From: Minisyncoccota bacterium
Lineage (GTDB): Bacteria > Patescibacteriota > Minisyncoccia > Phycocordibacterales > JBAYGS01
Length of the DNA stretch: 64,000 bases
Reading direction: 5' to 3'
NCBI GenBank assembly: GCA_041666545.1
Contig: JBAYGS010000003.1
Location: 41,086-105,085, forward strand
Shown here: positions 739 to 56,918 of the stretch, one piece after another
How the letters are laid out: every line of letters begins with the position of its first letter
How positions within the stretch are numbered: position 1 is the first letter of the stretch
Notes under the pieces: generated by a model
Database searches by the model: none
Told to the model about the DNA's origin: nothing
The model's input: the letters and a program-made list of their open reading frames with translations, nothing else
Translations under genes and position numbers: made by a program

Positions 739-851
739 TTTCCCCAGCTTTTTGCTATAGTGTCATCATTATTAAAATAAAATACTAATCCACGAATCTT
801 ATCCTAATCCACGAATTACGAATGAGGTCATTCGGATATTAGTAGATTGGC

Positions 852-3008
852 ATGAAATTTGTAGATTGGTATCAACAATCTATGAAGAAAAAAGAATTCT
901 CCACGATAGTCGGCGGCAAGACTTTGACCGCAACCTTCAGCGACTTGGCCGAAAGGGCTAACGGTTCAGTGATGTTGCGCTACGGCAACACAGTTGTGTT
1001 GGCGACCGCAGTAATGTCAAAAGAATCTCGCGATGGCGAAGATTTCTTACCGCTCACAGTTGATTATGAGGAAAAGTTTTACGCTTCCGGTCAAATTCTC
1101 GGCTCGCGATTTGTGAGAAGGGAAGGTAAGCCGTCAGACGAAGCAATCCTCTCCGGCCGAATTGTCGACCGCACCATCCGCCCGCTTTTCGATCACTGGA
1201 TTCGAAACGAAATCCAATCAATCATCACGGTGCTCTCGATTGAAGAGGACGACCCGGATATGCTCGGCATCTGGGGCGCCTCGCTCGCGATTGGAACCTC
1301 GCATATCCCTTGGAACGGGCCAGTTTCCGCAATTCGCTTGGCCAAGATGAAAGGCGATGACAACTTCATCATCAATCCCAGCTACAAAATCCGCGAAGAC
1401 AAAAATCTGGAATTTGAACTTGTGGCCTGTGGCAAAGACGGCAAAATCAACATGATCGAGCTCGGTGGCAACGAAGTCCCGGAAGAAACCGTCGCCAAAG
1501 CTTTGCAATTTGCTTCCGAAGAAATCGAAAAGGTCCAGGATTTTCAAAATAAAATCATCAAAGAAATCGGCAAAAAGAAATTGATAATTCCGAAGCCGGA
1601 AACACCGAAAGAACTGACCCCGCTTTTCAAAGAAATCGTGCTCGCTAAACTCGAGAAGCAAGTTTTTACTGGTGTGCCGGGTGACACTTCGATTGAGGCA
1701 CTCAAGAAAGAGTGGCTCACGGCGGTTGAAGAGAAATTTCCTGGCACCAATATCAACCTACCGATCGATCTCTTTGAAGATGCCACCAATGAAATCGTCC
1801 ACACCGAAGCGATTGAGAATAATCGCCGAGCTGACGGCAGGAAGATTGATGAAATCCGCCCACTCTACGCGCAAGCCGGCGGAATTTCGCCAATTCTTCA
1901 CGGTTCAGGAATTTTCTATCGAGGTCAAACCCACATTCTGACCGCGCTCACCCTGGGTGGTCCTTCCGACACCCAAATTATTGACGGAATTGAAGAAAAA
2001 AATGTACAAAAGCGTTTCATGCACCATTACAACTTCCCACCATTCTCAACCGGTGAAACCGGCCGAGCCAGTAGCACCAACCGCCGAATGATCGGCCACG
2101 GCGCTCTCGCGGAAAAAGCCCTCGTGCCAATAATTCCTGACCAAGAGCAATTTCCTTATACCATCCGTTTGGTCTCGGAAGCTCTTTCTTCCAATGGTTC
2201 GACTTCAATGGGTTCGGTCTGTGGCTCGACTCTGGCTTTGATGGACGGCGGTGTACCAATCAAGAAACCGGTGGCCGGCATCGCTTCCGGTTTAATGCTT
2301 AGCGAGGACGGTAAGAAATATAAAGTGCTCACTGACATTCAGGGACCGGAAGACCACTATGGCGATATGGATTTTAAAGTCGCGGGCACACTGGAAGGCA
2401 TCACCGCTATGCAGATGGATGTGAAAGTCGGCGGTATTCCGCTTTCCATTTTTCCGGAAGCTCTCGAGAAAGCTCGGCTAGCCCGAATTCAAATTTTGAA
2501 AGTCATCACCGAGGCCATCCTGGAACCGCGACCGGAAATCTGCGCCAAGGCGCCAAAAATCCTAATCATCAGAATCAAACCGGACCAGATTGGCGGCGTC
2601 ATCGGCTCCGGTGGCAAGACCATCAATGACATCAAGGAAAAAACTGGAGTGGAGGCCATCGACATCGAGGATGACGGCAAAATTTTCATTACCGGTAAAA
2701 ATGGTTCAGCTGAAAAAGCGAAAAAGATTATTGAGGAAATGACACACGAATACAAACGCGGTGAAAAATTCCAAGGTGAAGTGGTAAAAATCTTGGACTT
2801 TGGCGCTTTTGTGAGAATCGGCTACAACGCCGAAGGTTTGGTACACATTTCTGAAATCGCGCCCTTCCGAGTCGACCGGGTCACCGCCGTCCTGAAAGAA
2901 GGCGACAAAGTACCGGTCGTCGTTAAAGAAATCGATGAGCGAGGCCGAATCAGTCTCTCAATCAAACAAGCCGACCCGAACTTCGTGAAACAGCCGGGGA
3001 AAGTTTAG
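852..3008 (+). CDS. pnp: polynucleotide phosphorylase (PNPase)
   Basis: 718 aa. N-terminus GKTLTATFSDLAERANGSVMLRYGNTVVLATAV is classic PNPase. Two RNase PH-like regions, then KH (GSGGKTINDIKEKTGV) and S1 (GEVVKILDFGAFVRI) at the C-terminus. Confidence 0.93.
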   Translation: MKFVDWYQQSMKKKEFSTIVGGKTLTATFSDLAERANGSVMLRYGNTVVLATAVMSKESRDGEDFLPLTVDYEEKFYASGQILGSRFVRREGKPSDEAILSGRIVDRTIRPLFDHWIRNEIQSIITVLSIEEDDPDMLGIWGASLAIGTSHIPWNGPVSAIRLAKMKGDDNFIINPSYKIREDKNLEFELVACGKDGKINMIELGGNEVPEETVAKALQFASEEIEKVQDFQNKIIKEIGKKKLIIPKPETPKELTPLFKEIVLAKLEKQVFTGVPGDTSIEALKKEWLTAVEEKFPGTNINLPIDLFEDATNEIVHTEAIENNRRADGRKIDEIRPLYAQAGGISPILHGSGIFYRGQTHILTALTLGGPSDTQIIDGIEEKNVQKRFMHHYNFPPFSTGETGRASSTNRRMIGHGALAEKALVPIIPDQEQFPYTIRLVSEALSSNGSTSMGSVCGSTLALMDGGVPIKKPVAGIASGLMLSEDGKKYKVLTDIQGPEDHYGDMDFKVAGTLEGITAMQMDVKVGGIPLSIFPEALEKARLARIQILKVITEAILEPRPEICAKAPKILIIRIKPDQIGGVIGSGGKTINDIKEKTGVEAIDIEDDGKIFITGKNGSAEKAKKIIEEMTHEYKRGEKFQGEVVKILDFGAFVRIGYNAEGLVHISEIAPFRVDRVTAVLKEGDKVPVVVKEIDERGRISLSIKQADPNFVKQPGKV

Positions 3009-3040
3009 AGGTTTAGAAGTTTGGAAGTTGAAAAGTTTAA

Positions 3041-3078
3041 AACCGCCAAGCATTTACATGTAACTACTTGGCGGTTTT
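3041..3078 (+). terminator. rho-independent terminator after pnp
   Basis: Hairpin ccgccaag...cttggcgg followed by ttttcc. Confidence 0.55.
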
Positions 3079-4276
3079 CCATTCGTGTCATTCGTTTTCA
3101 TTCGTAATTTGTGTCGTGTGCCGGTCTACTTTAAAGCTTCATGTTTCAAGCTTTATATCGTATAATTTCCAAATGGATCCTGAACTTAGCCAATTTCTTG
3201 GGGGTAATTCCGCGACACCAAAGCCCGAAACCTCAGCTATCCCGCCGAAACCGCCAACACAGCCGATGCCACCACCCCCGGTGCCACCAAAACCAACAAC
3301 ACCGGAAACCCCGACATCTTTACACGGCCAAACAATCGGCCCGTTTTTTAGCGATTTAAACGGCAACCACGACAACAAAGACGCGGAGCTAAAGCCTTTG
3401 CGAACCTACGAAGGTGATGTTGCCGCTTTTATGAAATCTCACGGCACTTCAACAGTCTCAATCGCCACCGCCGAAAGTCAAAGACGAGCCGCCACCCCGA
3501 TTGAAAGAGTCTCAACTACCACCGGTGAGGAGCCGAAATCCTACACAACTCTAATCGTCACAATCATCAGTTTGATTTTAGTCGTTGGTGGAATCACGGC
3601 GATTTTCTTTGCCGTCAATTCGGTCAAACCGCCGACTACGGTCATAGTCGAGGAGATCAAAACTTTGATTCCAACCGAATCACAGAAGGGAATCGACCTA
3701 AACCTTATCGACACGGCCCGTCTGAAATTAATTTTGCAGAATGAGGTTTCCAACAGCAAAATACCACTCGGCTCATTTTTGGGCTTTTATTTCACCCAAA
3801 CCAACGCCTCGACCGGCAAACAAATTTTACCAGCCCAGCAATTCTTAAAATTATTGGTTAAAAATATCCCCGACTCGCTTTTGCGTACCATTTCCAACGA
3901 CTTTCTTTTTGGTTTGGTCTCTTATGATGGTAATCGGCCATTTTTGATTTTAAAAGTTGATTCCTTCCAGCAGGCTTACGCCTCAATGTTAGAGTGGGAA
4001 AAAGATTTAGCCTACGACTTTTCTGACCTCTTGGCCTATCCAAACGACACTTCGGTCGCCACAACCACCGCCTCCACGAACGCTTTGCTTTTCAACGACC
4101 AGCTCTTTAGTGATACGGTAATTAAAAATAAAGATGTAAGAATTTTGCGAACCGCAACCGGCCGAACCAGAATCCTTTATTCAATTTTGGACCAATCGAC
4201 AATTTTGATCACCCCAAGCGAAAACGCTTTCGGCAAAGTTTTGGAACGCCTTGCCACCGCTTCGTTGGTGAGGTAG
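3068..4276 (+). CDS. hypothetical Pro/Thr-rich protein with a single TM segment (true start probably Met at 3173, MDPELSQ)
   Basis: Long ORF. The 5' end of the tracked ORF overlaps a family-D repeat, so a later start is likely. PxxP-rich region, then a hydrophobic helix LIVTIISLILVVGGITAIFFAV, then an extracytoplasmic domain. Confidence 0.4.
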   Translation: MAVFHSCHSFSFVICVVCRSTLKLHVSSFISYNFQMDPELSQFLGGNSATPKPETSAIPPKPPTQPMPPPPVPPKPTTPETPTSLHGQTIGPFFSDLNGNHDNKDAELKPLRTYEGDVAAFMKSHGTSTVSIATAESQRRAATPIERVSTTTGEEPKSYTTLIVTIISLILVVGGITAIFFAVNSVKPPTTVIVEEIKTLIPTESQKGIDLNLIDTARLKLILQNEVSNSKIPLGSFLGFYFTQTNASTGKQILPAQQFLKLLVKNIPDSLLRTISNDFLFGLVSYDGNRPFLILKVDSFQQAYASMLEWEKDLAYDFSDLLAYPNDTSVATTTASTNALLFNDQLFSDTVIKNKDVRILRTATGRTRILYSILDQSTILITPSENAFGKVLERLATASLVR

Positions 4277-4400
4277 CGCTCGACACCGATTACAAATACC
4301 CGCGAACTCTTAACCTCTTTTATATTCGTGTGCCCTATTTGTAAGGGTTCTTAACTATTCGTGGATTTGTGTCGTGAGCTCGCTGTAGTATAATAGCGAA

Positions 4401-4757
4401 ATGATTGATACAACAAAACTCAAAACCAAATTAGAAGCTGAGCTCGCCACCCTCGAGACCGAACTTAATGGCATTGGCCAAAAAAATCCCAATAACCCGG
4501 CCGATTGGCAAGCTACACCGGGAAACATCGACGCCGATAGCGCCGACCGCAATGAAGTTGCCGACACCATTGAAGAATTTGAAGACAACACCGCCATTCT
4601 CAAAGATTTGGAGATCCGTTACAACAATGTCAAAGACGCGCTCGCCAGGATTACCGCCGGCACTTACGGAACCTGTGAAGTCTGCAAAAAAGCCATCGAC
4701 CCTAAACGATTAGAGGCCAACCCTTCTGCCACCACCTGTATTGAACACACGAAATGA
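4401..4757 (+). CDS. DksA/TraR-family zinc-finger protein (C4-type)
   Basis: 118 aa. C-terminal CEVCKKAIDPKRLEANPSATTCIEH resembles the DksA/TraR zinc finger, with a coiled-coil N-terminus. Confidence 0.5.
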   Translation: MIDTTKLKTKLEAELATLETELNGIGQKNPNNPADWQATPGNIDADSADRNEVADTIEEFEDNTAILKDLEIRYNNVKDALARITAGTYGTCEVCKKAIDPKRLEANPSATTCIEHTK

Positions 4758-4761
4758 AACA

Positions 4762-4850
4762 CCAATAACCAAGAGACAATAACCAAAATTAAGTTGGTTG
4801 GAATTTGTTTGATTATTGTTTCTTGGATTTTGTTATTTGATTACTATGTC
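4762..4850. repeat. family-B palindromic unit overlapping the comM start region
   Basis: caataaccaagagacaataaccaaaa ... ttgattattgtttcttggattttgttatttg. Confidence 0.65.
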
Positions 4851-6414: not shown

Positions 6415-6541
6415 TACCAATCTACCAATTTTATTCCAATCTACAAATATCCAGATAATTAAGAACTCACAAAAAACCGCTCACGCGGTTTTTGGATTTC
6501 TTTTTCTTCATACCATATACCTTATACTATATACCCAATAC

Positions 6542-7594
6542 CTATCTGAAAGGGTTTTGCGCGCCTCGGACTTCGAAGTGTAAGTGCGGTCCGGTTGAAC
6601 GACCGGTAGAACCGACATAGCCGATAATCTGGCCTTGCACGACATAAGAACCTTCGTAGGCAACATTGGTATCAAGGTGCCCATAAAGAGTTTGAGTACC
6701 GTTCGCGTGGGCAATAACGATATATTCGCCGTAGCCACCGTTCCAACCCGAGGAACGACTGATGATGACTTGGCCACTCGCCGCAGCCATGATTGGTGTA
6801 CCTCTTGAGGCACCGATATCAATCCCGTTATAGCCATGCAAGCCCTGGGTTTTTCTGCCACCAAGAACCGGCCAAATGTAATAGGTGCCGTAGTCTGGAC
6901 CACCTGCGCCACGGATTTTTGAGGTGCTACTGATTGTCGAAACACTGTAGCCGGCCATTTCACCATCGGGAATAATTATCGTATCACCAACTATCAAACT
7001 GGCACCTTGATCCAAACCGTTAAATTGTCTGATTTCACCCGCGTCGCCTTTGTACTTTTTGGCAATGCTCTGTAGAGTTTCACCTTTAACCACGGTGTGT
7101 TTGATACCGGAGATAGGTAGGATAATCAATTTTTGACCGACCTGAATCGGACCGGTAATGTCGTTGGCCCAAATAATCGTGTTGGCTGAAACACCAAACA
7201 TTTTAGCAATACCGGAAAGTGAATCGCCAGAATGAACAACGTAGACACTAATCTGACTTGATTTTGGATCTTCGATGTCCGCCAAGGTGCCGGCCGGGCC
7301 AGCTTCCGAAAGTAGGGCGGAGCTTGCCACGATTGTGATGTCACCACCCTTGGACAAGCTCGGGTTAGGGTTCCGGGTCGCCTGAAGCAGGGGCATATTT
7401 TGAGAATTAACTACCGACCCGTTAGTTCCGGCCTCAGCCTCATTATTGACCAAACTAGAAATAAAACTTAAAAGCCCCGCGTTTGCAGTTCGCGGAGCTA
7501 AAATCAAACTTAAAAATAGAACGGTAGCGGTAATAGTTGAGAAAACCAAAATCGGCTTCATTTTGGAAAAGCCTTGGTTGAGCCATATTTTCAT
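6542..7594 (-). CDS. LysM-domain M23 family metallopeptidase
   Basis: 350 aa. Signal/TM N-terminus, two LysM-like repeats (VHSGDSLSGIAKMFGVS; VVKGETLQSIAKKY), and a C-terminal M23 motif HGYNGIDIGA...GPHLHFEVR. Confidence 0.8.
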   Translation of the reverse strand: MKIWLNQGFSKMKPILVFSTITATVLFLSLILAPRTANAGLLSFISSLVNNEAEAGTNGSVVNSQNMPLLQATRNPNPSLSKGGDITIVASSALLSEAGPAGTLADIEDPKSSQISVYVVHSGDSLSGIAKMFGVSANTIIWANDITGPIQVGQKLIILPISGIKHTVVKGETLQSIAKKYKGDAGEIRQFNGLDQGASLIVGDTIIIPDGEMAGYSVSTISSTSKIRGAGGPDYGTYYIWPVLGGRKTQGLHGYNGIDIGASRGTPIMAAASGQVIISRSSGWNGGYGEYIVIAHANGTQTLYGHLDTNVAYEGSYVVQGQIIGYVGSTGRSTGPHLHFEVRGAQNPFR

Positions 7595-7943
7595 CTGGTT
7601 GGCCTTACAGATTGCGCCAGTTGAGCCAGAATATTTTAGAGATTTAGAGATAAGCCTAATTTATACTCTCTAAAACTTTGAAGCTTTGACCTTTCTATCT
7701 TTAGGATTTCCTAAATTACGGCTCTACATAGCCGTGCTTCGAAGTTTCCCGAGAAAGCCTGATTTACAGCCATTTCTGACATATATGGCTCAACAAAGCC
7801 ATATAAACGGCAAAACAACCCTTTCGGTATATATCCATACTAGCTTTTAAAGACTTTAAGGTCAAACCAGTTGTCCACCTTTAGGAAAATGGAACATAGA
7901 GCATGGAGCATAAGGAAAAACCAAAGACAGGCACGGCCGCGCG

Positions 7944-8522
7944 TTGCGCGCGGCCGTGCCTGTTCTTGACTTTTTAACAGAGACATGCATAATTATACAC
8001 AGACTCGTCCTAAAACAAAAAGAAAGGAAACTTGTGAAAAATGAGTTTTTGTCACTCACCGGCAGTGTTTTACTTACGATTGATTCTTGGGTTGGCCTTC
8101 TCATGTTCTACCTAGTCTATCGATCAGGTTTCGATTGTTTGATTCGTGAGCCCTTTCACAAAATCCAAGCACTTACGCGCAATTGGAATTGGCAAACCAG
8201 ATTCAGTGCGGGTTTAGTCCTGCTTGTCCTCACGGCGATAGTTTTCTATGCTCCCGGCAGGTTCTTGAGTGAAAGGTTTTCAGATAATCCGAGATACGGC
8301 CAACCGATCTCTAATGAACTGGTTTCATTCAAAAACAAGATCTTTCGACCAAGAGCTGTGATCACTGTCGATGGAAAAACCGTACTCTACAATGAGGATG
8401 GCAAGTTCTACAGTCTGGACGGTCTGATCCTTGGACAAAAGCCGGACGAACTGTTTAAGCCCGGCGCTTCTTACACTGTTTACAGCCAAAGCAACCAATT
8501 GTGGTTTGCTCGACTGAACTGA
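7944..8522 (+). CDS. hypothetical membrane protein (likely GTG start at 8034 behind an AGGA RBS)
   Basis: The tracked ORF start lies inside a strong hairpin (7927-7965). An in-frame GTG at 8034 is preceded by aaaggaaac. Two predicted TM helices. A terminator follows at 8535-8561. Confidence 0.35.
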   Translation: MRAAVPVLDFLTETCIIIHRLVLKQKERKLVKNEFLSLTGSVLLTIDSWVGLLMFYLVYRSGFDCLIREPFHKIQALTRNWNWQTRFSAGLVLLVLTAIVFYAPGRFLSERFSDNPRYGQPISNELVSFKNKIFRPRAVITVDGKTVLYNEDGKFYSLDGLILGQKPDELFKPGASYTVYSQSNQLWFARLN

Positions 8523-8561: not shown

Positions 8562-8601
8562 AATACTTTCTACTTTCTATCTTATACCTTATACTTCCCC
8601 C

Positions 8602-11781: not shown

Positions 11782-11833
11782 CCCTCGCTTTATCGTTTTA
11801 GGAAAACTTTAAAACGCTTGATATAATTAGCTG

Positions 11834-12811
11834 ATGAAAAACAATCGGCTCACTTTATGGGCAAGCATTGTTCTGGCACTTTTGATTGTCGGCGGAACTT
11901 GGTATTTCTCCGTTAGCAAAGACAGTCAACAAAATATCGTCTCTGATAGCAGTGGCTTGAAACAAGTGGCTAGTCTGGTGACAGAAAAAGATTCTGATCG
12001 TGATGGTTTGAAAGACTGGGAAGAGTCACTTTGGGGGACTGACCCAATGAATCCTGATACTGACGGCGATGGCACAAATGATAGTGACGAAGTCAAGGCC
12101 GGAAGAAATCCCTTGATTCAGGGACCAAACGATATCTTGCAAAAATCGGACGACATCACACAAGTCACTAACATCTCCGCAAACGAGGAACTTAGCCAGA
12201 CTGACAAATTCTCGCGCGAACTTTTTGCCCGTTATTTAGCTTTCAAGCAGGGCAGTGAGACTTTGGACCCAAAGAGTCAAGAAATCATTATCAATAGTAT
12301 GTTGGCGGAGAACCAGACGACTATTTCTGCTAAAGTTCATTCTTCAGCCGAGCTAAAGGTGAGCCAAGACAATTCGGCAGCTGCCTTAAAAAATTATGGC
12401 AACCTGCTTGGCGGGGCCATTATTTCGTCTAGTCCGAAAAACACCCGAAACGAGATTACGATTTTAAACGAAGCGGCCCAGTCCGGAGATGAGAACAAAA
12501 TCGGAGAGCTGGACCCAATAATCACCGGCTACCAAGATTTGATCAAAGCTGTTTTGACTATAGAAGTTCCAACAGGGGCCATCTCAATCCACATCGCTTT
12601 CATCAATAGTTTGGAAAAAGTCTTGGTTAATATCAAAACTTTGCGACAATTCTTTACTGACCCGATCGCCGCTTTGTCAGGAATCAATAATTACGAGGGC
12701 GCTGTCACCTCTTTGCAATCAAGCTTGACCGCTTTCAGGAGCTTTTTCCAGGTTAAGGGCATCGTTTTCGAACCGACCGCCCCAGGGAACGCGCTTGTGG
12801 GCAACTTTTAG
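11834..12811 (+). CDS. membrane-anchored protein with thrombospondin type-3-like Ca-binding repeats
   Basis: N-terminal TM helix. DSDRDGLKDWEE...DPMNPDTDGDGTNDSDE aspartate-rich repeats. First gene of the co-directional secretion-like locus. Confidence 0.4.
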   Translation: MKNNRLTLWASIVLALLIVGGTWYFSVSKDSQQNIVSDSSGLKQVASLVTEKDSDRDGLKDWEESLWGTDPMNPDTDGDGTNDSDEVKAGRNPLIQGPNDILQKSDDITQVTNISANEELSQTDKFSRELFARYLAFKQGSETLDPKSQEIIINSMLAENQTTISAKVHSSAELKVSQDNSAAALKNYGNLLGGAIISSSPKNTRNEITILNEAAQSGDENKIGELDPIITGYQDLIKAVLTIEVPTGAISIHIAFINSLEKVLVNIKTLRQFFTDPIAALSGINNYEGAVTSLQSSLTAFRSFFQVKGIVFEPTAPGNALVGNF

Positions 12812-40845: not shown

Positions 40846-40944
40846 TGACTTTAGTCTTAAAATTTGATATACTATAGGTAGGAATACAGAAACCTAAACC
40901 ATGTTTGTGCCGACTTTTAGTAGTCGGCACAAGGAAAGGACCAG

Positions 40945-41835: not shown

Positions 41836-41907
41836 GCCACTCAGTTCTTCACAAAGCGCGTCGCAAGATGCGCTTTTCTTTTTGTTCAATTTAGCTACAA
41901 TCACTGG

Positions 41908-42375
41908 ATGAGAATTATAAGCAAAAGTTTGGCCGAAACCGAAAAATTCGCCCAAGATTTTTTAAATAAAATTAAACCAAAAGAAAACGACGCGACGGTC
42001 GTCGGTCTACATGGTGATTTAGGATCTGGAAAAACCGCTTTTGTTAAACTGATTGCGAAAAATTTAGGCATTACTGAAAACATCACCAGCCCCACTTTTG
42101 TCATTATGAAAAACTACCCACTTATTCTTCAAAACTTCCCAACTTCAAAACTTCCCAACTTCAAAACTCTCACACATATTGACGCCTACCGTCTCGACCG
42201 TGGCAGTGATCTTGCCAAGCTTGGTTTTGCTGATTTACTAAATAATCAAGAAAATCTGATTCTGCTTGAGTGGCCGGAAAAAGTGGCCGATGTTCTACCG
42301 AAAGACTATGTAAGGATTGATTTTAAATTTATTGACGAAAACACCAGAGAAATTTCTACTGATTTTTGGCTTTAA
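41908..42375 (+). CDS. tsaE: tRNA threonylcarbamoyladenosine biosynthesis protein TsaE (YjeE ATPase)
   Basis: 155 aa. VGLHGDLGSGKTAFVK (Walker A) ...TSPTF...HIDAYRL core, with an in-frame 16 aa insertion encoded by a family-E repeat. Confidence 0.8.
   Translation: MRIISKSLAETEKFAQDFLNKIKPKENDATVVGLHGDLGSGKTAFVKLIAKNLGITENITSPTFVIMKNYPLILQNFPTSKLPNFKTLTHIDAYRLDRGSDLAKLGFADLLNNQENLILLEWPEKVADVLPKDYVRIDFKFIDENTREISTDFWL
42127..42168. repeat. family-E repeat (aaaacttcccaacttc x2) inside the tsaE coding sequence, in frame
   Basis: Encodes LILQNFPTSKLPNFKT between conserved TsaE segments. Confidence 0.75.
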
Positions 42376-44350: not shown

Positions 44351-44391
44351 AAATGCTAGAATGTAGCTATATTTTTCATAATTCCTAATTC

Positions 44392-46842
44392 GTGAATCCT
44401 AAATCTACCCCAAAAAGACTGGTTTTACTCGACGCTCACGCGATACTGCACCGCGCTTACCATGCCTTGCCGGAATTTTCTTCAAGCAAAGGGGAACCGA
44501 CCGGGGCACTTTACGGGCTTTCAGCGATGCTCATCAAGATTATTGCTGATTTGAAGCCCGACTATTTGATTGCCGCTTACGATTTACCCAAGCCGACCTA
44601 TCGCCACGAAGCTTTCAAAGACTACAAAGCCGGCCGAGCCAAGGCCGACCCGGAACTGGTGTCGCAAATGAGGCGCTCGCGTGACGTTTTCACCGCTTTT
44701 AATATTCCAATTTATGACAAGGAAGGTTTTGAAGCGGATGACATAATCGGCACAATTGTCGAAAAGCTAACAGCTAAAAGCCAAAAGCTAAAAGCTGATG
44801 TAGACATAGTGATTGCCTCGGGCGACATGGACACCTTGCAGTTGGTTTCGGACGACAAGGTTCGAGTTTATACTCTGAAAAAAGGTATTAAAGACACGAT
44901 TATCTATAACGAAAAAGGTGTTATTGAACGGTTTGGTTTTGGGCCGGAACTTTTGCCGGATTACAAAGGTTTGCGCGGGGACCCGTCGGATAATATTCCG
45001 GGGATAAAAGGAATTGGTGAGAAGACCGCCACGATTTTGATTACCAATTTCGGTTCGGTTGAACAGATTTATAAACAAATTAAAAAAGACGAAAAGCCAT
45101 TACTTAAGGCAGGGATTACGCCCCGAATTGTTGAGCTTCTGAAAACCAACGAAGAAGAGGCGCAATTTTCCAAAATGCTTGGCACAATTCGTAGAGACGC
45201 GCCGATTGACTTCAGATTGCCGGAGCAGACCTGGAAGGAAAGTTTGGACGTTACAAAAACCGAGGAATTGTTCAGCGAACTGGAATTTCGAGCGCTCGGG
45301 ACACGCTTTAAGGAAACTTTAAATAAAGAAGCGCCAAATTCAAAAACCCAGGTTCCAAATAAATCTCAAATCATAAAGTCAGAAAATTCAGAAACTACAC
45401 ACTACTCACTACCCACTACTCACTTACCATCCGACTTCTTCGAAACCTCGCTTGCCCTCTGGGTCGTCAATTCTAACCTGACCAATCCGACCATGGAGGA
45501 TGTTTTGAATTTTGGCCGGACGGATGATTATGAAAAAGCCAAGAAGTTGATTTTTGAAACACTCAGGCAAAGAAAAAGCGAGAGAGTGTATGAGGAAATC
45601 GAGAAACCTTTGATTCCTGTCGTAAAAGCGATGGATGAGCGGGGAGTGAAGATTGATACGGAACTTCTCAAGAAACTTTCGGTTGAATATCATAAGAAAC
45701 TGGATGGCTTGGAAAAAGAAATTCACCAATTGGCCGGTGAGGAATTTAATGTGGCTTCCCCGAAACAATTGGGAGAAATTTTGTTCGTTAAGATGGGCTT
45801 GGCTGGCAAAAGGCAAAAAAAGACTGCAACTGGGGCGTTTTCTACCAAGGAAAGCGAACTTGAAAAATTGCGAGAGTCGCATCCGATTATAAGTTTGATT
45901 TTGGAGTATCGCGAATTTGCCAAATTGCTTTCCACATATATCGACACGATTCCGACTCTGGTGGACAAGAATAACCGGCTACACACGCATTTTTTGCAAG
46001 CCGGCGCCGCGACTGGGCGAATGGCCTCGGAAAATCCGGGTTTGCAAAATATTCCCAACAAAACTGAATTGGGCCGAGCTATTAGACAAGCTTTCGTTGC
46101 CGAAAAAGGTTTTAAACTTTTGGCGCTCGATTATTCGCAGATTGAACTCCGGATTGCCGCGTTTTTGTCGGGCGATAAAAAGTTGATTGAGATTTTTAAG
46201 AACGGCGAAGATGTTCATACAGCGGTGGCGGCGGAAGTTTTCGGTGTGCCGGGCGACAAAGTCCACAAAGATATGCGTCGCAAAGCCAAAGTGATTAATT
46301 TCGGCGTGATGTACGGGATGGGGGTGAATGCGCTTCGGACTAATCTGGGCGCCGGCACAACTCGTGAGGAAGCGCAGAAATTTTACAACGACTATTTTGA
46401 AAAGTTTTCAGGTTTGGCCAAATATTTAGATAAGGTGAAAGCTGAAACCGCGAGACAAGGTTACACCGAAACTTTTTTTGGCCGAAGGCGATATTTTGAA
46501 GGAATTAATTCTAAATTACCGTTTATTCGTGCCGCTGCTGAACGAATGGCGATTAACGCGCCGATTCAAGGCACCGAGGCCGACATTGTGAAGCTCGCGA
46601 TGATTAAAATTTGCGAATACATCAAATCGGAAAAACTTGAGGAACAAGTTTTTCCGATTCTCCAAGTCCATGACGAATTGGTTTATGAAGTTCGCGAGGA
46701 TTTAATTTCCAAAATCGCTCCAGCTATCAAAAAAATTATGGAATCAGTTATTCCACCCGAAAAAGTTGCCGGCATCGTCTGTGTCGCCGAAGCGTCCGAG
46801 GGGGAGAGGTGGGGGGAGATGAAGAAGGTAGAAGGTATATAG
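44392..46842 (+). CDS. polA: DNA polymerase I (5'-3' exonuclease + polymerase domains)
   Basis: 816 aa. N-terminal 5'-3' exo (LVLLDAHAILHRAYHALP; GIGEKTA). C-terminal pol motifs (LALDYSQIELRIAA; YGMGVNAL; QVHDELVYEV). The linker carries in-frame repeat-derived insertions. Confidence 0.93.
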   Translation: MNPKSTPKRLVLLDAHAILHRAYHALPEFSSSKGEPTGALYGLSAMLIKIIADLKPDYLIAAYDLPKPTYRHEAFKDYKAGRAKADPELVSQMRRSRDVFTAFNIPIYDKEGFEADDIIGTIVEKLTAKSQKLKADVDIVIASGDMDTLQLVSDDKVRVYTLKKGIKDTIIYNEKGVIERFGFGPELLPDYKGLRGDPSDNIPGIKGIGEKTATILITNFGSVEQIYKQIKKDEKPLLKAGITPRIVELLKTNEEEAQFSKMLGTIRRDAPIDFRLPEQTWKESLDVTKTEELFSELEFRALGTRFKETLNKEAPNSKTQVPNKSQIIKSENSETTHYSLPTTHLPSDFFETSLALWVVNSNLTNPTMEDVLNFGRTDDYEKAKKLIFETLRQRKSERVYEEIEKPLIPVVKAMDERGVKIDTELLKKLSVEYHKKLDGLEKEIHQLAGEEFNVASPKQLGEILFVKMGLAGKRQKKTATGAFSTKESELEKLRESHPIISLILEYREFAKLLSTYIDTIPTLVDKNNRLHTHFLQAGAATGRMASENPGLQNIPNKTELGRAIRQAFVAEKGFKLLALDYSQIELRIAAFLSGDKKLIEIFKNGEDVHTAVAAEVFGVPGDKVHKDMRRKAKVINFGVMYGMGVNALRTNLGAGTTREEAQKFYNDYFEKFSGLAKYLDKVKAETARQGYTETFFGRRRYFEGINSKLPFIRAAAERMAINAPIQGTEADIVKLAMIKICEYIKSEKLEEQVFPILQVHDELVYEVREDLISKIAPAIKKIMESVIPPEKVAGIVCVAEASEGERWGEMKKVEGI
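45395..45428. repeat. family-A repeat inside the polA coding sequence, in frame
   Basis: actacacactactcactacccactactcacttacc encodes TTHYSLPTTHLP in the exo-pol linker. Confidence 0.75.
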
Positions 46843-46865
46843 TATTAAGTATATGGTATAAAAAA

Positions 46866-48608: not shown

Positions 48609-48658
48609 CACTATTTTTTATACTATATACCTAATACTTTATACTATATACTTTACCT

Positions 48659-50479: not shown

Positions 50480-50990
50480 ACTCGTCTTGGGAAAGATGGG
50501 TTTTTTAAATCCAAAAGCCGAGATCTAATCTTGTCGGCCACAACTCTCGCTTTGCCGTCGCAAAGCTCGGTCGCAGCCCCCGCCTCGCGGCCTCGCCTGC
50601 TGGCTCGGCATCGCACCGCAAGGGTACTTCCAATTTCTAACTCGCATAGCTCGAAGAAATTTAGGTCGCTCCGGCTCGGACAAGTATCGAAATCGGACTT
50701 GTCGTCACAAATATTTTGTTCGCCGTCGCTCACAAAATTTTCTGACCACGCCTCGGCTGTTTTGCTTGCTCACAAAACATGCCTCCGGCTCGGACAAGTA
50801 TCGAAAAAAGCGGAGCAGTCCGCTTTTTTCTATCTTGTCCGCCCGGTAGGAAGTTCGACCCTTACAGGGTCAGTGCCCTGTTTGGATTTTTCTTGCGCGT
50901 GAGAAAGCTTAGAAAAATGCTCAAACAGGCTTCGATTCCTACACGGAGACATAACATGTCTCCTCGGGCGGACCATTCCGCTTCGCTACA
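50480..50990. repeat. tRNA-Lys 3' flank: mosaic of conserved hairpins (loop tcgccgtcgc), a duplicated ctccggctcggacaagtatcgaaa motif, and a partial tRNA-Lys 3'-end copy
   Basis: gtccgcccggtaggaagttcgaccc at 50838-50862 resembles the tRNA 3' end gtccgcccggtaggaatcgaacc at 50994-51016. The repeat ctccggctcggacaagtatcgaaa occurs at 50661 and 50783. Confidence 0.55.
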
Positions 50991-50993
50991 TAG

Positions 50994-51066
50994 TCCGCCC
51001 GGTAGGAATCGAACCTACGACCTTCTCCTTAAAAGGGAGCCGCTCTACCAACTGAGCTACGGGCGG
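50994..51066 (-). tRNA. tRNA-Lys (anticodon UUU)
   Basis: Hand-folded from the minus strand: GCCCGUAGCUCAGUUGGUAGAGCGGCUCCCUUUUAAGGAG...GGUUCGAUUCCUACCGGGCGG. Acceptor stem pairs. Anticodon loop CUUUUAA. CCA not encoded. Confidence 0.8.
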
Positions 51067-51146: not shown

Positions 51147-51578
51147 CTAAAGCGGCAAATCAAAGGCGAGAAAACCCGGGCCGCTAACTAAAAGTGAAAG
51201 CAAGATTACGATGAGTAGTAAGTAAACCCGCTTATTGTAAACAATTGCACCGGCCCATCTCGGAGTTTTGGATTTCAATGCTTGAATTAGCAAAATCAAA
51301 ATCAAAACTAAGGCAACTGGTTGGGTGAATAATCCGATAACCAAAAAAATTCCGCCCAAAACCTCTAAGAGGGCAATTATTCTGGCCAGAATTGATTTTG
51401 GGGCCGAGAGACTCCTGTAAAGCTGGTAACCGGAATAAATAATAATCAAACCGGCCACGATCCGAAGAAGCGTCGGTCCGGCGAGTCCGTAGGTCAATAA
51501 ATTTGGAAAAATACTTAACATGGCATTATGATAGCATAATGAATAATCAATAACCAAGAAACAATAACCAAGAAACAA
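51147..51578 (-). CDS. DoxX family membrane protein (likely start at internal Met, MLSIFPN)
   Basis: 4 TM helices. LLRIVAGLIIIYSGYQL...GGIFLVIGLFTQ is DoxX-like. Confidence 0.55.
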   Translation of the reverse strand: MFLGYCFLVIDYSLCYHNAMLSIFPNLLTYGLAGPTLLRIVAGLIIIYSGYQLYRSLSAPKSILARIIALLEVLGGIFLVIGLFTQPVALVLILILLIQALKSKTPRWAGAIVYNKRVYLLLIVILLSLLVSGPGFLAFDLPL

Positions 51579-51655
51579 TAACCAAGGTAAGTAGACGCTA
51601 CCGAGTATTGTTAATCGGAATTTGTTCGGTTATTGTTTCTTGGTCATTGGTGATT
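51546..51655. repeat. family-B palindromic unit (3x caataaccaagaaa, then ttattgtttcttggtcattg)
   Basis: Long imperfect inverted repeat in the divergent intergenic region between the DoxX and SpoU genes. Confidence 0.7.
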
Positions 51656-52161: not shown

Positions 52162-53159
52162 CTTGAGATATCGACCGTGTTGCCGGCCGAGTCAATAAGT
52201 TTAATGATTTCTCGTTTGCTTTTCCAAATTTCGTCGGTGCGATTTAAGAAAACCCGCCATTCGGAGGTCGAGTAAAAATCGGTGTCGTTTAGGTGATCGT
52301 CGACACAACCGTTGTAATTAAAGTGAGCCGTGATGAAGTCTTGGCAGGTGTTGCCGGCTTTGAACGGAAAAATCTCAGTTGGCATCTGACAGAGACTGAT
52401 TCTGTCAATGTAGTCGCGACAAGTGTCATTGAAGCTTTGCGGGTCAAGCGGGATGTTGGCGTCTCTGGCGGCCGGACATTGATAGTTGATTATTGGGGTG
52501 AAGGTCTGGAATTGGTTAAGGTAGCCTGAACATTTGTTCCCACGGAAAGAATAGCCGACCGGCGACCGACCGGTTGAGATGATCGCTCGTTCACCCGGTG
52601 TAAGGACAATAGCGCCTTCAGAGTTTAATTGGCCGGAACGAAAGATTTGGGTGCCACCGCCAATAGGATAACCGTTACCGGTTGCGCCACTGGCAATTTT
52701 CCACCCGGTAATATTAACCCCTTTGGCATTATTGCTGGCGGCCCTGATTGTGATGTATTCCTGTTGCGGGTTAGAGGCAATAGCGCCATAGGTGCTATCT
52801 ATTAAGACCAAATCGGCGTAAACCGAAATACCTTTGTCTGGCAAAATGTCCGCTACAGCCGAAGCTGGCCCGGTAGGAGTTTGGGGTGCTTGATTATTGT
52901 TGGTTTGGCCGGTGTTCGAATCGGTCGGGCCGGTACCGCCACTACCGACTAGACCTTCCAAAGGTTTGGGTAGACTGCCATAGCCGGTGCTGTTTTCGCC
53001 AATAGTTGTGGGTGGGATGAGATACGGTCCTTGAGTGGCAATTGGTCGGTTATAGCCACCGGTCCAAACCCAGGCGATGATGATGAGAATCATGATGGCC
53101 ACCAAAGACATAAAGTCTTTGCCGGCGCTTTGAGTTGGTTTAGTTTTTTTATCGGCCAT
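52155..53159 (-). CDS. membrane-anchored lamin-tail-domain (LTD)-like protein
   Basis: N-terminal TM, Gly/Thr-rich linker, then EYITIRAASNNAKGVNITGWKIASGATGNGYPIGGG, which resembles LTD sequences. Confidence 0.45.
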   Translation of the reverse strand: MADKKTKPTQSAGKDFMSLVAIMILIIIAWVWTGGYNRPIATQGPYLIPPTTIGENSTGYGSLPKPLEGLVGSGGTGPTDSNTGQTNNNQAPQTPTGPASAVADILPDKGISVYADLVLIDSTYGAIASNPQQEYITIRAASNNAKGVNITGWKIASGATGNGYPIGGGTQIFRSGQLNSEGAIVLTPGERAIISTGRSPVGYSFRGNKCSGYLNQFQTFTPIINYQCPAARDANIPLDPQSFNDTCRDYIDRISLCQMPTEIFPFKAGNTCQDFITAHFNYNGCVDDHLNDTDFYSTSEWRVFLNRTDEIWKSKREIIKLIDSAGNTVDISSY

Positions 53160-53212
53160 CGAAATAGTATTAGGTATATAGTATTAAGTATATAGTATGG
53201 GGAAAGAAAAAT

Positions 53213-54190
53213 CTAAGAGTAAAGAATTTGATGCTTGGGGCAGAAGTGAGCGCTGCGACCGCCGAGTTTGAGTTTGGTGATGATACCGGAGCATCTTTTC
53301 TTGCCACATTTTCCGCTAGTCTTTTGATAAGCCTGATGGTGATACTGGAAATTGCCCTTGGTGCCGAGTGGAGTGCGATAATCCGAAGTTGAATCACCGC
53401 CAAATTGGATGCCTTTTCTCAAAATCAGCTTCATTGAGTCGAACATCTTTTTTAGCTTTAGTGCAGGAATTTTAGAGACAATCGAGAGGGGATGGATGCC
53501 AGAGTCCCAAAGAATTTCGTCAGAATAAATATTGCCAATGCCGGATACAACTTTTGGGTCCATGAGAACCTGTTTGATTCTGCTTTTGGGCCAAGTGAAT
53601 AGACGGCCTTGGAATTTTTTGAAATCAAAACTTTTTTCGAGGGGTTCTGGGCCAATGTCGGCCAAATGCCCAGTTTCGTGAGCGGTTTTGGTTGGTAGGA
53701 GAGTGACTTTAGCGAACTTTCTCACATCGGAGAGAGCCAAATGTTTGCCATTTGTAAACGAAATAACTAAATGAACGAATCGGCTGTAGGGGTCTTTAAG
53801 CGCCTCGGGCGCAATCGCGATCCAAGGGGAAGCTGTTAGCTGTTGGCCTTTAGCTTTTAGTTTTTCGGATTTACTTGAAACTTTTAACTTGGAACTTGGA
53901 ACTCGCCTGTACGTTCCGTACAGGAGTTGGCCGGTCATTTTCATGTGAACCAGAATTGTCTGACCGTTTGAGAGGTTTATCAAAACATTTTTACCGCGCC
54001 TTTCGACATTTTTAATTTTCGCGCCAATTACGCTGACCCGAAATTTTCGGAAAAATTTCGGGTCCTTAATATTATCTTTTCCCTCATGAATTTTTCCGCC
54101 ATAATCGGTCCAAGCATCAGAAATAGTAAGGCCGGAAATCAGCCGGTCTAGCATTGTTGCGGTAGTGTGGACTTCGGGAAGTTCGGGCAT
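53213..54190 (-). CDS. mutM: formamidopyrimidine-DNA glycosylase (Fpg/MutM/Nei family)
   Basis: 325 aa. N-terminal MPELPEV (catalytic Pro2/Glu3), H2TH region, and a C-terminal zinc finger CGKKRCSGIITKLKLGGRSAHFCPKHQ. Carries an in-frame repeat-derived insertion. Confidence 0.85.
   Translation of the reverse strand: MPELPEVHTTATMLDRLISGLTISDAWTDYGGKIHEGKDNIKDPKFFRKFRVSVIGAKIKNVERRGKNVLINLSNGQTILVHMKMTGQLLYGTYRRVPSSKLKVSSKSEKLKAKGQQLTASPWIAIAPEALKDPYSRFVHLVISFTNGKHLALSDVRKFAKVTLLPTKTAHETGHLADIGPEPLEKSFDFKKFQGRLFTWPKSRIKQVLMDPKVVSGIGNIYSDEILWDSGIHPLSIVSKIPALKLKKMFDSMKLILRKGIQFGGDSTSDYRTPLGTKGNFQYHHQAYQKTSGKCGKKRCSGIITKLKLGGRSAHFCPKHQILYS
53848..53906. repeat. family-E-like repeat inside the fpg coding sequence (minus strand), in frame
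   Basis: The minus-strand sequence encodes VPSSKLKVSSKSEKLKAKGQ, inserted in Fpg. Confidence 0.7.
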
Positions 54191-54858: not shown

Positions 54859-54921
54859 TCAGGGTTTATTGTTTTGCATAACACCAAGATTAGTTCTTGG
54901 TGTTTTTCTATTATTTTTTCT

Positions 54922-56187
54922 CTAGCAGTTTTTTAATTCCTCTCTAGCAACAGTCGCATCATCCCAAGGGATTTTGGTGCCGTTTGGCCCGCAGATACAG
55001 GGGTCGGTGCCTTTGCCAGTAATTAAAACCGTATCGCCAGTTTGGGCGAGTTTCAAAGCCTCGCGAATCGCTTCGCGGCGGTCCATAATAATTTTATATT
55101 GTCCGTCGGCGATTCCTTTAGCCACTTCCTCAACGATTGCTCTCGGGTCCTCATCGTAAGGGTCTTCATTGGTAAGAATTATTTCATCGCAATATTGATC
55201 GGCAACTTTCCCCATGGCCGGTCTTTTCCATTTGTCTCGGCCGCCACCGGTGTTTCCCAAGACGCAGATTTTTCGCGAATCTTGGAAAACCTGATAAAGC
55301 TTTTCTAGGGAATCGGCGGTATGGGCGTAGTCAACAATTACCTCAAACTTCTGATTGTCAGAAATCTTTACATTTTCCACTCGACCGCGGATCCCTTTGA
55401 ATCTTTCCAGGGCGGATTTTATAACCGAAATTCCGATACTTTGCGATTTGGCATAAGTAATGGCCGCGAGCATATTGTAAACATTAAAAAGACCGGAAAG
55501 GTGAGAGGTGATCAAGGTCTTGTCGATTGTAATATCGGTGTCATGAAGGTGTAGTTCATACGGTTCAGCATCTTTGACCGAGAACTTGATTTTCTCCGCA
55601 ATATTTAGAGCGAGAAATAGAGCTAATTCTTTATCGTCGCCATTTACCACCAAAACTCTTCGCTTCTTTTTGGATTTGGCCAGAGCCCGACCGATTGAGA
55701 GTTTGGCGTCTTTATATTTTTCAAATGAGCCATGAGCCTCAATGTGTTCCGGAGAAATGTTGGTGACGATCAGTCCGTCAAAGTTTATCAGGCGGTGGCG
55801 AGAAAATTGGGCGCCTTGGGAGGTGACTTCAAGGATGGCGTACTGGCAACCCGCCTTCACGGCTCGGCGAAGAAACTTCTGCATGAAAAATCGTCCCGGC
55901 ATCGACATCTTAAATTTATTGTCTTCAGAGTTCTGGTCAATTTTAAAGCGCACTGTGTTTTGTAGAGCAGTTTTAAATCCGGCCTCTTCTAAAATCGCAT
56001 TTAAGATTTCGGTAGTCGAACTTTTTCCTTTGGTGCCGGTGACACCAACGACGATCAGTTTACGAGAAGGGAAGCGGTAAATAATCGCGCCCAAAAGCGA
56101 CATCAGGTAGTGATAGGCCGGCTGAAAAAAGTTGTAAGCCTTAGCCGGAATTATTTTCTCAATTTGTCTTAGAATTTTTTCTTTCAT
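54922..56187 (-). CDS. Mur ligase family protein (MurE-like UDP-N-acetylmuramoyl-tripeptide synthetase)
   Basis: 421 aa. VVGVTGTKGKSSTTEIL (P-loop), the Mur ligase middle and C-terminal domains, and a DNPR-like motif. Confidence 0.7.
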   Translation of the reverse strand: MKEKILRQIEKIIPAKAYNFFQPAYHYLMSLLGAIIYRFPSRKLIVVGVTGTKGKSSTTEILNAILEEAGFKTALQNTVRFKIDQNSEDNKFKMSMPGRFFMQKFLRRAVKAGCQYAILEVTSQGAQFSRHRLINFDGLIVTNISPEHIEAHGSFEKYKDAKLSIGRALAKSKKKRRVLVVNGDDKELALFLALNIAEKIKFSVKDAEPYELHLHDTDITIDKTLITSHLSGLFNVYNMLAAITYAKSQSIGISVIKSALERFKGIRGRVENVKISDNQKFEVIVDYAHTADSLEKLYQVFQDSRKICVLGNTGGGRDKWKRPAMGKVADQYCDEIILTNEDPYDEDPRAIVEEVAKGIADGQYKIIMDRREAIREALKLAQTGDTVLITGKGTDPCICGPNGTKIPWDDATVAREELKNC

Positions 56188-56757
56188 TTATTTACCTAAA
56201 ACTTTTAATGCAGCTTTTATTCTTTCGCCGGTATCAGCAATTTTTAGATCGACTTCTTTTAGCGCTTCACGGGCTTCTTGGTGCTTATAGCCAAGAGCCT
56301 TCAGGGCTTCAAGTGCATCAATTTCGTCACGCAAACTCATTTCATCAGCTTCTGTATCGACACCGAGTTTGCCTTTGAGTTCCAAAACAATTTTGTCGGC
56401 CATTTTTTTGCCAATGCCGGAAACTTTGGTGAGGTGGGCAGTCTCGCCGGAGATAATCGCTTTTCGTAAAGAGGGGACAGTTGTCACATTCAAAATTCCC
56501 AGAGCGGTTTTCGGACCGATGCCAGAGACCGTAATCAAAAGTTCAAAAAAAGAAAGCTCCTCTTTGTTTAAAAAACCATAAAGGTCCAGGGCGTTTTCTC
56601 GGACGGCTAAATGAGTCCAAAGTGAGATAACTTCACTCTTTTGGCTTTTGGCGATAGTTTCGGCGGTAGCGAAGACCTTGTATCCCACTCCACCAACGGA
56701 AATTACCAAATATCGCTCAGTGGTGTCGGCTACGGTACCGCTTAGGTGGGAAATCAT
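56188..56757 (-). CDS. ruvA: Holliday junction DNA helicase RuvA
   Basis: 189 aa. MISHLSGTVADTTERYLVISVGGVGYKV, with helix-hairpin-helix GIGPKTALGIL and the C-terminal domain III. Confidence 0.9.
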   Translation of the reverse strand: MISHLSGTVADTTERYLVISVGGVGYKVFATAETIAKSQKSEVISLWTHLAVRENALDLYGFLNKEELSFFELLITVSGIGPKTALGILNVTTVPSLRKAIISGETAHLTKVSGIGKKMADKIVLELKGKLGVDTEADEMSLRDEIDALEALKALGYKHQEAREALKEVDLKIADTGERIKAALKVLGK

Positions 56758-56918
56758 GAAGTTAAGTATATAGTATAAGGTATATAGTATAAAGTATCAG
56801 ATAATTCCACAGGAATGGATAAATTTGCATTTTTTGAAAGTCTCTGTTAGTATTGCCCTTGTTCGTTTTTCTGATGTCTTTAACTACAAACTACTCACTA
56901 CCAACTACTAACTAACTT

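Follow-up and report, generated by a model that had tools for sequence, protein, structure and literature searches.

The repeats considered here are scattered over a stretch of 64,000 nucleotides from a Minisyncoccota bacterium (contig JBAYGS010000003.1, positions 41,086 to 105,085), which we call the window and to which all coordinates below refer. They belong to five families, A to E, and their true form is that of degenerate 7-base units, a few of them octameric, lined up in short tandem arrays of 3-6 units. Our analysis indicates that these arrays are probably degenerate heptamers placed at gene boundaries, with families A and B as the arms of selfish cassettes resembling the intervening sequences (IVS) of rRNA and the other copies as derivatives of sequence of this kind. 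Such a cassette would consist of a 5' heptamer array, a gene of the S23p/PF05635 family and a complementary 3' array, set inside an operon for type IV secretion. IVS that bear S23p are known already, as are heptamer repeats in several phyla; what appears to be new is the period-7-specific link of PF05635 and GxxExxY genes to inverted heptamer arrays, the occurrence of IVS-like cassettes in operons, and the heptamer arrays of the Candidate Phyla Radiation (CPR). A full-text search of the published literature returned nothing that connects dispersed heptamer arrays with S23p or GxxExxY genes, describes heptamer arrays in CPR or places IVS-like cassettes in protein-coding operons. To our knowledge, cyanobacterial heptamer repeats have been on record since 1990, and those of Xanthomonas and Beggiatoaceae came later, with no origin or function established, and we know of no function for the S23p four-helix-bundle and GxxExxY families, both of which are very widespread.

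The periodicity of the repeats was measured by a census based on lag autocorrelation, in which a region was counted if it had at least 16 of 21 self-matches and dinucleotide shuffles served as the null, with Tandem Repeats Finder run alongside. The window holds 18 regions of period 7 against a shuffle mean of 0.15, 16 of period 14 (mean 0.25), which arises where an array is made of two alternating heptamers, 5 of period 21 (mean 0.15) and 3 of period 8 (mean 0), and for all remaining periods there are 0-3 regions each. Word searches allowing up to 3 mismatches, with a chance expectation of 0, gave 7 matches for family A, 7 for family B and 5 for family C. The exact word of family E occurs once, and its period-8 arrays are placed by Tandem Repeats Finder at 3001, 34705/34723 and 42127; family D is heterogeneous and only loosely heptameric. 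An earlier note on this DNA had listed dispersed repeats at 25 coordinates, and repeats of the kind it described are present at all 25. The period-7 excess (18 against 0.15) and the word matches where none is expected establish them as genuine, non-random dispersed families at gene boundaries that are enriched over composition within the window. The note's picture of a shuffled concatenation of two or three words gives way to one of tandem heptamer, and in some cases octamer, arrays.

The composition of the arrays is equally unusual, 13 of 24 (54%) being wholly free of G or of C on one strand and none being free of A or T. The share of such arrays is 9-23% among simulated degenerate heptamer arrays and 0.7% among random 35-nt windows, and the reduced alphabet was therefore rejected as a trivial by-product of repetition. 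The near-loss of one base claimed in the note thus stands for these 13 arrays and fails for family B, which retains T (A 59%, C 17%, T 15%, G 9%). The strand-asymmetric composition that the note described is borne out and restricts the self-pairing of one array, which is impossible in single arrays without G or C. As for position, 49 of 74 heptamer arrays in 1.44 Mb (the window and its relatives) lie in the approximately 13% of the sequence that is non-coding or at a gene boundary, usually in the order gene stop, terminator hairpin, array and next start codon. The proposed location within 60 bp of a start or stop codon applies to most arrays of the window, with the exception of 5-6 intragenic ones (two in PolA, others in TsaE, Fpg and, weakly, KsgA).

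Contigs of ENA ERZ27249449, JGI 3300037810, Logan SRR6484324 and SRR18595301 match the window at 100% identity, also in the arrays, and such identity across four independent samples and assemblers means that the repeats are no assembly artefact. An assembly or construction origin, for which the odd appearance of the repeats and nothing else can be cited, was raised in the note as a condition that would undo its claim; with analogous arrays also present in dozens of related metagenome-assembled genomes (MAGs) and in isolate plasmids, its probability is practically nil. No polymorphism of the arrays between strains was seen, every retrievable contig of the window being 100% identical in them. 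The JGI contig (L082) lacks 70 nt of a VTT-domain gene and has a run of N (60369-60438, 62359-62500), its sole departures from the window; the arrays are untouched, and the difference is probably at the level of assembly.

The cassette reading is founded on two genes of the window. The gene IVP1 (17310-17666, plus strand) encodes a 118-aa protein of the 23S_rRNA_IVP/four-helix-bundle (S23p) family (PF05635 6e-39; TIGR02436), whose best PDB match is 2GSC, that is, Xanthomonas XCC0516 (6e-23). It is preceded by a family A array, (GTAGTGA/GTAGTGG)n, at 17277-17306 on the plus strand, and it runs into another, (TACTCAC/TACCCAC)n, at 17652-17699 on the plus strand, which is G-less and lies 8 nt before the start codon of prgI. 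Since a stop codon within a heptamer means that three units close all three frames, the TAG and TGA of the 5' arm shut every frame, while in the 3' arm, its complement, the reading frames are open and start codons are absent. The two arms form a 25-bp perfect inverted repeat (inverted-repeat score 27-30), and for the 446-nt IVP1 transcript a long-range stem of about 30 bp is predicted around the open reading frame (ORF), with the arms paired in both the minimum-free-energy and the centroid structures.

The gene IVP2 (18999-19358, plus strand) encodes a second, divergent PF05635 four-helix-bundle protein of 119 aa (PF05635 1.5e-13; TIGR02436) and is bracketed by family B with a flanking inverted-repeat score of 16. 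Its 5' arm (CACCAAA CACCAAG AAACAAA ...) lies at 18898-18950 on the plus strand, and its 3' arm, at 19385-19426 on the minus strand, abuts the start codon of virB4; a further family B copy in the 3'-arm orientation (18961-19002, minus strand) spans the start codon of IVP2 itself. A 42-nt direct duplication (90%; 18961-19002 and 19389-19430) brackets IVP2 and takes in the start context (…CC/CT ATGA) of IVP2 as well as that of virB4, so that it looks as if the cassette had copied the translation start region of its host gene. Both genes are situated within an operon resembling those of type IV secretion systems (T4SS), among neighbours encoding PrgI, TraC-like and VirB4-like proteins. Neither the inverted pairing of arrays nor the bracketing of the two PF05635 genes by families A and B had been noticed in the earlier note.

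Similar cassettes are found in CPR relatives, with arms that depend on the protein. Genes of IVP1 type in L002, L099, L109/112/114 and L119 have (GTAGTNN)n upstream and a complementary array downstream, with a GTAGG/AGCT variant of the arm in L120, and those of IVP2 type in L122, L123 and L129-134 have (CAATAAC CAAGAAA)n upstream and its complement downstream. GxxExxY genes (PDDEXK_3, TIGR04256) in L122, L135, L138 and L141 are flanked by ACGAAT / GAATCTACAAAT arms, which are family D words; as far as sequences can tell, these words make up the arms that GxxExxY (PD-(D/E)XK) cassettes have in relatives. When 1117 ORFs of at most 260 aa were screened blind, flanking inverted repeats scoring at least 14 were met at 11, all of them IVP or GxxExxY genes. 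Taken at the level of sequence, these comparisons show that each protein subfamily has arm words of its own which are kept across CPR lineages.

Comparison of filled with empty sites likewise shows that cassettes have evidently been inserted. Relative L119, whose VirB4 is 89% identical to that of the window, shares the IVP1 site with it and has a gap of 4 nt at the TraC-like/VirB4 junction, a site filled by the IVP2 cassette in the window and in L122. The polA-holA gap is about 1-20 nt in some 35 relatives, and the window has there a 1.8-kb insert whose edges are inverted family C arrays with an inverted-repeat score of 22, the null maximum being 13; at the same junction L002 has an IVP cassette and L032 a gene-less pair of inverted arrays. 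Only three polA-holA inserts are bounded by inverted arrays. This junction (L001-L080; 46843-48658 in the window) is also a recurrent hot spot of insertion, with ORFs of 60-250 aa in about 25 genomes. Similarly, the yebC-ruvC gap is 1-10 nt in most relatives and is occupied in the window by a family E hairpin, several relatives having array hairpins of their own at this junction, and in L099 comM and an M23 peptidase gene are separated by an IVP cassette, at a junction that holds an orphan family C array in the window. The number of units in the 5' arm of an identical IVP protein is 6 in L112, 7 in L114 and 8 in L109, by which unit number is shown, from the loci aligned, to vary between strains. 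In a Gribaldobacteria-like population, an 86-aa GIY-YIG gene between dnaG and rpoD (L109 1532-1792), present or absent among strains (L112) and having no heptamer arms, is another small selfish-gene polymorphism.

The link extends beyond CPR. Of 33 PF05635 genes from various phyla, 25 are flanked on at least one side by a period-7 or period-14 array and 11 on both sides, against 62 and 2, respectively, of 1515 control ORFs; at other periods the PF05635 flanks have none for 5, 6, 9 and 10, 2 for period 8 and 1 for period 11. Among four-helix-bundle genes on plasmids, that of Nostoc edaphicum lies between (TAGGGAG)n and (TCCCTAC)n (inverted-repeat score 31), that of Calothrix brevissima between (TAGGGTG)n and (CTACACC)n (24), that of Geminocystis between (AAAAGGG)n and its complement (22), that of Riemerella between (GGTTTAA)n and (AACCTTG)n (14), and that of Anabaena 90 is flanked by (TGTCACC)n (12). 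Many homologues on IMG/VR contigs are flanked in like manner. For GxxExxY genes on plasmids there was no tblastn match at 1e-8, and the comparison of family D arms covers CPR. Some four-helix-bundle cassettes are inside operons, between the beta and alpha genes of ribonucleotide reductase, cas6 and cas4, or the small and large genes of NiFe hydrogenase (L146 Nostoc edaphicum, L149 Anabaena 90, L120), and their presence between subunit genes in several phyla implies that intra-operon positions are tolerated or exploited. A search for S23p gave more than 7,900 matches at E <= 1e-10 among the 8,000 candidates scored.

In Xanthomonas, 186 GGGAATC arrays have been described, 70 of them in convergent pairs (PMC4692102), and array #15 of Xanthomonas campestris overlaps the start codon of XCC0516 (PMC4692102), which is the very S23p protein whose structure, 2GSC, is the best PDB match of IVP1. 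A TAG-G-rich core is common in IVP1-like 5' arms of several phyla (17277-17306 of the window, L146, L150, L165, L172), for example TAGTGAG, TAGGGAG, TAGGGTG, TAGTCTG and TTAGGAG, and the Xanthomonas unit GGGAGTAGGGAATC agrees with this pattern; the core could be a conserved recognition core or a mere constraint by stop codons.

Copies of families A and B also occur in the window apart from any IVP gene. Two solo family A arrays, G-less in the sense strand, lie directly 5' of the start codons of yebC (35298-35336, minus strand) and rpsT, the gene of S20 (56879-56918, plus strand), and a third array of this family is in frame in a hypervariable linker of PolA (45389-45431, plus strand; aa 333-346). 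One exact 21-mer is common to both IVP1 arms and to this PolA array, from which it follows that array sequence has been copied between loci. Family B forms two gene-less hairpins, one between the dksA-like gene and comM (4753-4850, with B+ at 4753-4786 and B- at 4798-4850; -24.2 kcal/mol, z -3.4) and one in a divergent intergenic region (51538-51650, with B+ at 51538-51585 and B- at 51621-51650; -37.7 kcal/mol, z -6.3). The gene-less hairpin of family E inserted between yebC and ruvC lies at 34694-34750 (z -4.8 and -5.5), and the predicted folds of such hairpins in the window range from z -2.6 to -6.3.

Besides the family A copy, PolA contains an in-frame (AAAAGCT)n array in the loop of its 5'-3' exonuclease (44759-44800, plus strand; aa 123-137), both of its arrays being in loops variable by insertion and deletion. 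Fpg has two in-frame heptamer arrays forming a loop insertion of about 21 aa (53831-53907, minus strand), and TsaE has an in-frame octamer array of family E, (CTTCAAAA CTTCCCAA)n, that makes an insertion of about 8 aa in a loop (42126-42169, plus strand). Other heptamer arrays are present in the very loops of PolA and TsaE in L003 and L010, and at the Fpg site there are ACCCTAA heptamers in L086 and AGTCGNA heptamers in L087, as found in a metagenome scan of 13 loci, mostly short, that was used solely for the comparison of this loop. The 5' regions of yebC, rpsT, holA and fpg also carry arrays, and from species to species the words of these are unrelated, the families being homogeneous within one genome; such unrelated words at orthologous sites imply that position is conserved and sequence is not.

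The host of these arrays belongs to CPR/Patescibacteria, as PolA and its neighbours have their best matches, at about 70% amino-acid identity, in MAGs labelled Taylorbacteria or Paceibacterota. The genes of the window are chromosomal (pnp, comM, uvrD-like, PBP1, polA, ruvABC and the T4SS-like operon), and a phage origin was rejected, with no megablast match to phage records and with genes of chromosomal housekeeping. No rRNA lies in the window, and Rfam detected in it tRNAs only and no family matching the repeats. Merely 9 of 67 window genes have a Shine-Dalgarno match, even a weak one. A consensus scan of the window for promoters and terminators gave no enrichment over shuffles, and a positional analysis of -10 hexamers was used instead: hexamers resembling TATAAT peak 6-7 nt 5' of ATG, for instance at 4381-4403, 11817-11836 and 41890-41910 and, on the minus strand, at 38285-39975. 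Such a peak is a signature of leaderless mRNA and suggests that leaderless mRNAs are widespread in the host.

Family C is best read against this background. Its arrays (TATACC/TATACT) lie at 6506-6542 (plus strand) after the comM terminator at a convergent junction, at 8563-8596 (plus) after a terminator and before the uvrD-like gene, at 35346-35382 (plus) adjoining the solo family A array, at 46823-46862 (minus) and 48610-48656 (plus), inverted to each other, as the left and right edges of the 1.8-kb polA/holA insertion, at 53158-53204 (minus) directly 5' of the start of a minus-strand gene, and at 56760-56803 (minus) before ruvA. Four of these copies are close to a start codon, and in each of them the last TATACT stands 6-7 nt before the ATG (6 nt for the uvrD-like gene and holA, 7 nt for ruvA, the fourth being a 334-aa gene), and the TATACT at holA is kept in relatives as a single copy at equal distance. 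This spacing and this conservation give family C the look of a -10 box that is repeated in tandem and serves leaderless transcripts. The small ORFs of the 1.8-kb insert between the two family C arrays gave no informative Pfam matches.

As for family D, its words CACGAAT and ATTAGTAGATTGG occur 5' of pnp (786-851), ATTCGTG and TTTGTGTCGTG 5' of the dksA-like promoter (4323-4380) and further words 5' of polA (44376-44405), and its arrays follow the pnp terminator as CATTCGT repeats of period about 10 (3079-3118) and another terminator as TTGAATC / TTCGTGAATC (36798-36857), all on the plus strand. A remaining octamer array of family E, AAGTTTAG-like, sits at the stop codon of pnp (2999-3042, plus strand).

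In terms of mechanism, the cassettes may work much as IVS do. In a read-through transcript the two arms would pair into a stem of about 25-30 bp, which RNase III may cut as it does in rRNA IVS, so that the selfish ORF would be excised from the operon transcript and the flanking cistrons would be left translatable in an organism that has no need for Shine-Dalgarno sites. The G-rich 5' arm would close three reading frames, the G-less 3' arm would offer the gene that follows a leader with neither structure nor start codons, fitting for a host with hardly any Shine-Dalgarno sites, and the arms, being repetitive, may still be able to pair after slippage by taking another register, 7 or 14 nt away. 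The other copies could be derivatives of three sorts: gene-less inverted pairs, comparable to ORF-less IVS, solo arms acting as G-less leaders before start codons, and arrays tolerated in frame in variable protein loops.

The likeness to the IVS of Leptospira, Coxiella burnetii and Brucella lies in an S23p/PF05635 ORF between inverted repeats with a stem of about 28-30 bp, in tandem heptamers 5' of the ORF with strain-variable copy number, and in the existence of ORF-less forms. In the Coxiella IVS, for one, RNase III cuts a stem of 28 bp, and 2-3 GACAGAT heptamers that vary between strains lie 5' of S23p (PMC4990558), and IVS are regarded as selfish (PMC4990558). However, IVS are located in a helix of 23S rRNA (9, 25 or 45), whereas the cassettes here are between genes of protein-coding operons, have both arms made entirely of heptamer arrays and have arm sequence that also occurs as solo and in-protein copies. 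In IVS, RNase III excises without religation, and a comparable excision would be expected here by analogy.

Several observations weigh against this interpretation. RNase III processing of the arm stems is inferred by analogy alone, and the window has no RNase III gene. Neither a clear target-site duplication, when filled and empty sites were compared, nor a transposase was found. The B-type 3' arms are TTG-rich and contain G, so the idea of a clean leader does not fit every family, and for 5'-proximal arrays the sense-strand G-poverty that the data suggest is a moderate bias of 13 G-poor against 4 C-poor. Two family C arrays are at convergent junctions with no gene downstream, which speaks also against their reading as -10 boxes, and the 64-kb window contains neither a GxxExxY gene nor a gene that could partner families C, D and E. 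Moreover, many of the IVP loci compared had been fetched because they encode IVP, with controls taken from other loci, and differing words at orthologous sites could equally be produced by local generation de novo.

This last point leads to plain simple sequence repeats (SSRs) of 7-nt units made by slipped-strand events, arising locally, immobile and with no tie to genes, the families then being coincidence or favoured seeds. In many bacteria heptamer SSRs are over-represented, and slippage of the polymerase has been put forward as the cause (Mrazek 2007, as cited in PMC4679880 and PMC4692102); unit number does differ between strains, orthologous sites do have different words, and the TsaE loop of L003 and L010 is of normal length yet holds a heptamer array, which suggests formation in place. 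We nevertheless think slippage an unlikely explanation of the whole, since exact 21-22-mers are common to distant loci and arms are protein-specific, their words being kept with each subfamily across CPR lineages, so that local slippage alone is insufficient; inverted pairing is specific to IVP/GxxExxY genes (11 of 11 among the 1117 ORFs), and the 54% of arrays without G or C exceeds the simulated range. Binding sites of a trans-acting RNA- or DNA-binding regulator, acting on the translation or transcription of adjacent genes, are another conceivable origin, and one proposed for the TAACTGA repeats of Beggiatoaceae, with ribosomal protein S1, Csp and CsrA-like proteins as candidates (PMC4679880). 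Many arrays abut start codons in a genome almost without Shine-Dalgarno sites, and yebC, rpsT and holA carry arrays in several species, in accordance with that published parallel (PMC4679880). But the words at orthologous genes are wholly different between species, at least five unrelated families coexist in 64 kb, arrays are found also in coding loops and at convergent 3' ends, and no candidate binder was identified, which makes regulation quite improbable as the general answer.

It is doubtful, though less so, that the small proteins flanked by the arrays, S23p pentamers and GxxExxY nucleases, act in trans to move or maintain these as non-autonomous elements, after the manner of REPIN-RAYT systems, in which short repeats of the repetitive extragenic palindromic (REP) kind are associated with a transposase. 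Here the genes are indeed flanked by inverted copies of a family dispersed elsewhere, gene-less inverted doublets are present, arms are specific to a protein subfamily, GxxExxY has a PD-(D/E)XK nuclease fold (Pfam PDDEXK_3), and Xanthomonas has its 70 convergent pairs among 186 GGGAATC arrays, with #15 at the start of the S23p gene XCC0516. S23p, however, has no known catalytic activity, target-site duplications were not seen, and families C, D and E are without a partner gene in the window. As a broader form of this idea we tentatively suggest that S23p and GxxExxY genes may be autonomous partners of the arrays, which would be the cis sites that the encoded protein binds or mobilises, and that the short tandemly repeated repetitive (STRR), GGGAATC, Bacteroidota and CPR repeats may be gene-less derivatives; if true, such a system would be REPIN/RAYT-like, with a different protein and a site of 7-nt periodicity as its basis.

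With the IVS-like cassette kept as the preferred reading, its relation to other described elements can be stated. The earlier note recognised no described element in the repeats, which is too wide, as a class of tandem heptamers has been published for other phyla (PMC4692102, PMC4679880). Those SSRs (STRR, Xanthomonas GGGAATC, Nostoc GGGGAYT and Beggiatoaceae/Bacteroidetes TAACTGA) share with the present arrays degenerate 7-nt units in mostly intergenic positions; they typically have about 4 copies, are often directly 5' of start codons and vary in length between relatives (PMC4692102, PMC4679880), and they too occur as single arrays, as convergent pairs and occasionally within ORFs. In contrast to STRR, our arrays are from CPR and not from heterocystous cyanobacteria, have units differing from the STRR1-3 consensus and comprise several families in one genome, and the link to PF05635/GxxExxY found here is reported in neither PMC4692102 nor PMC4679880.

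The note was right in setting the repeats apart from REP, bacterial interspersed mosaic elements (BIME) and CRISPR, there being no RAYT as the flanked gene, no palindromic unit of 20-40 nt and no spacers. With REPIN-RAYT they have in common a single-copy gene between inverted short repeats that are also dispersed as intergenic doublets and singlets, but the flanked gene encodes a PF05635 four-helix bundle and not a Y1 transposase of IS200/IS605 type, and a REP unit is an imperfect palindrome of 20-40 nt, whereas here tandem heptamers form hairpins only from inverted pairs. Of the features that define miniature inverted-repeat transposable elements, inverted arms are present, the filled and empty sites compared show no clear target-site duplication, and a transposase was not found. 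CRISPR repeats of 24-48 nt with unique spacers differ from units of 7-8 nt that are directly adjacent. Finally, S23p proteins are homologous four-helix bundles to Avd (bAvd Pfam 4e-6, NF033474 2e-8), which binds nucleic acid and a reverse transcriptase; unlike in diversity-generating retroelements, no reverse transcriptase or pair of template and variable repeats is encoded among the immediate IVP neighbours (PrgI, TraC-like, VirB4-like), a whole-window scan for reverse transcriptase not having been made.

Some further features of the window were recorded. An element of about 140 nt with a terminator-like hairpin and conserved GC-rich boxes occurs twice on the minus strand (50701-50838 and 57219-57356; 81% identity), directly 3' of tRNA-Lys (50993-51066) and tRNA-Arg (57355-57427), and has no Rfam match. 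An 18-bp GC-rich, near-perfect palindrome with 14 G-C pairs (7926-7964) is terminator-like on both strands and overlaps the TTG start of ORF 7944-8522, for which reason the true start of this ORF is probably further downstream of the annotated TTG. The region 40001-42000, around ORF 40945-41835, has a G+C content of 54.6% against about 45% elsewhere.

The link described here joins two unexplained phenomena, namely the heptamer repeats and the small proteins of the S23p and GxxExxY families. The bracketing of such genes in CPR, Cyanobacteria, Bacteroidota, Xanthomonas and viral-like contigs leads to a testable model of IVS-like selfish cassettes in operons as well as in rRNA. For the host itself, insertions of this kind bring spacers, terminators and promoters into the tightly packed operons of CPR, and in essential proteins such as PolA, Fpg and TsaE repeat insertions make new loops.

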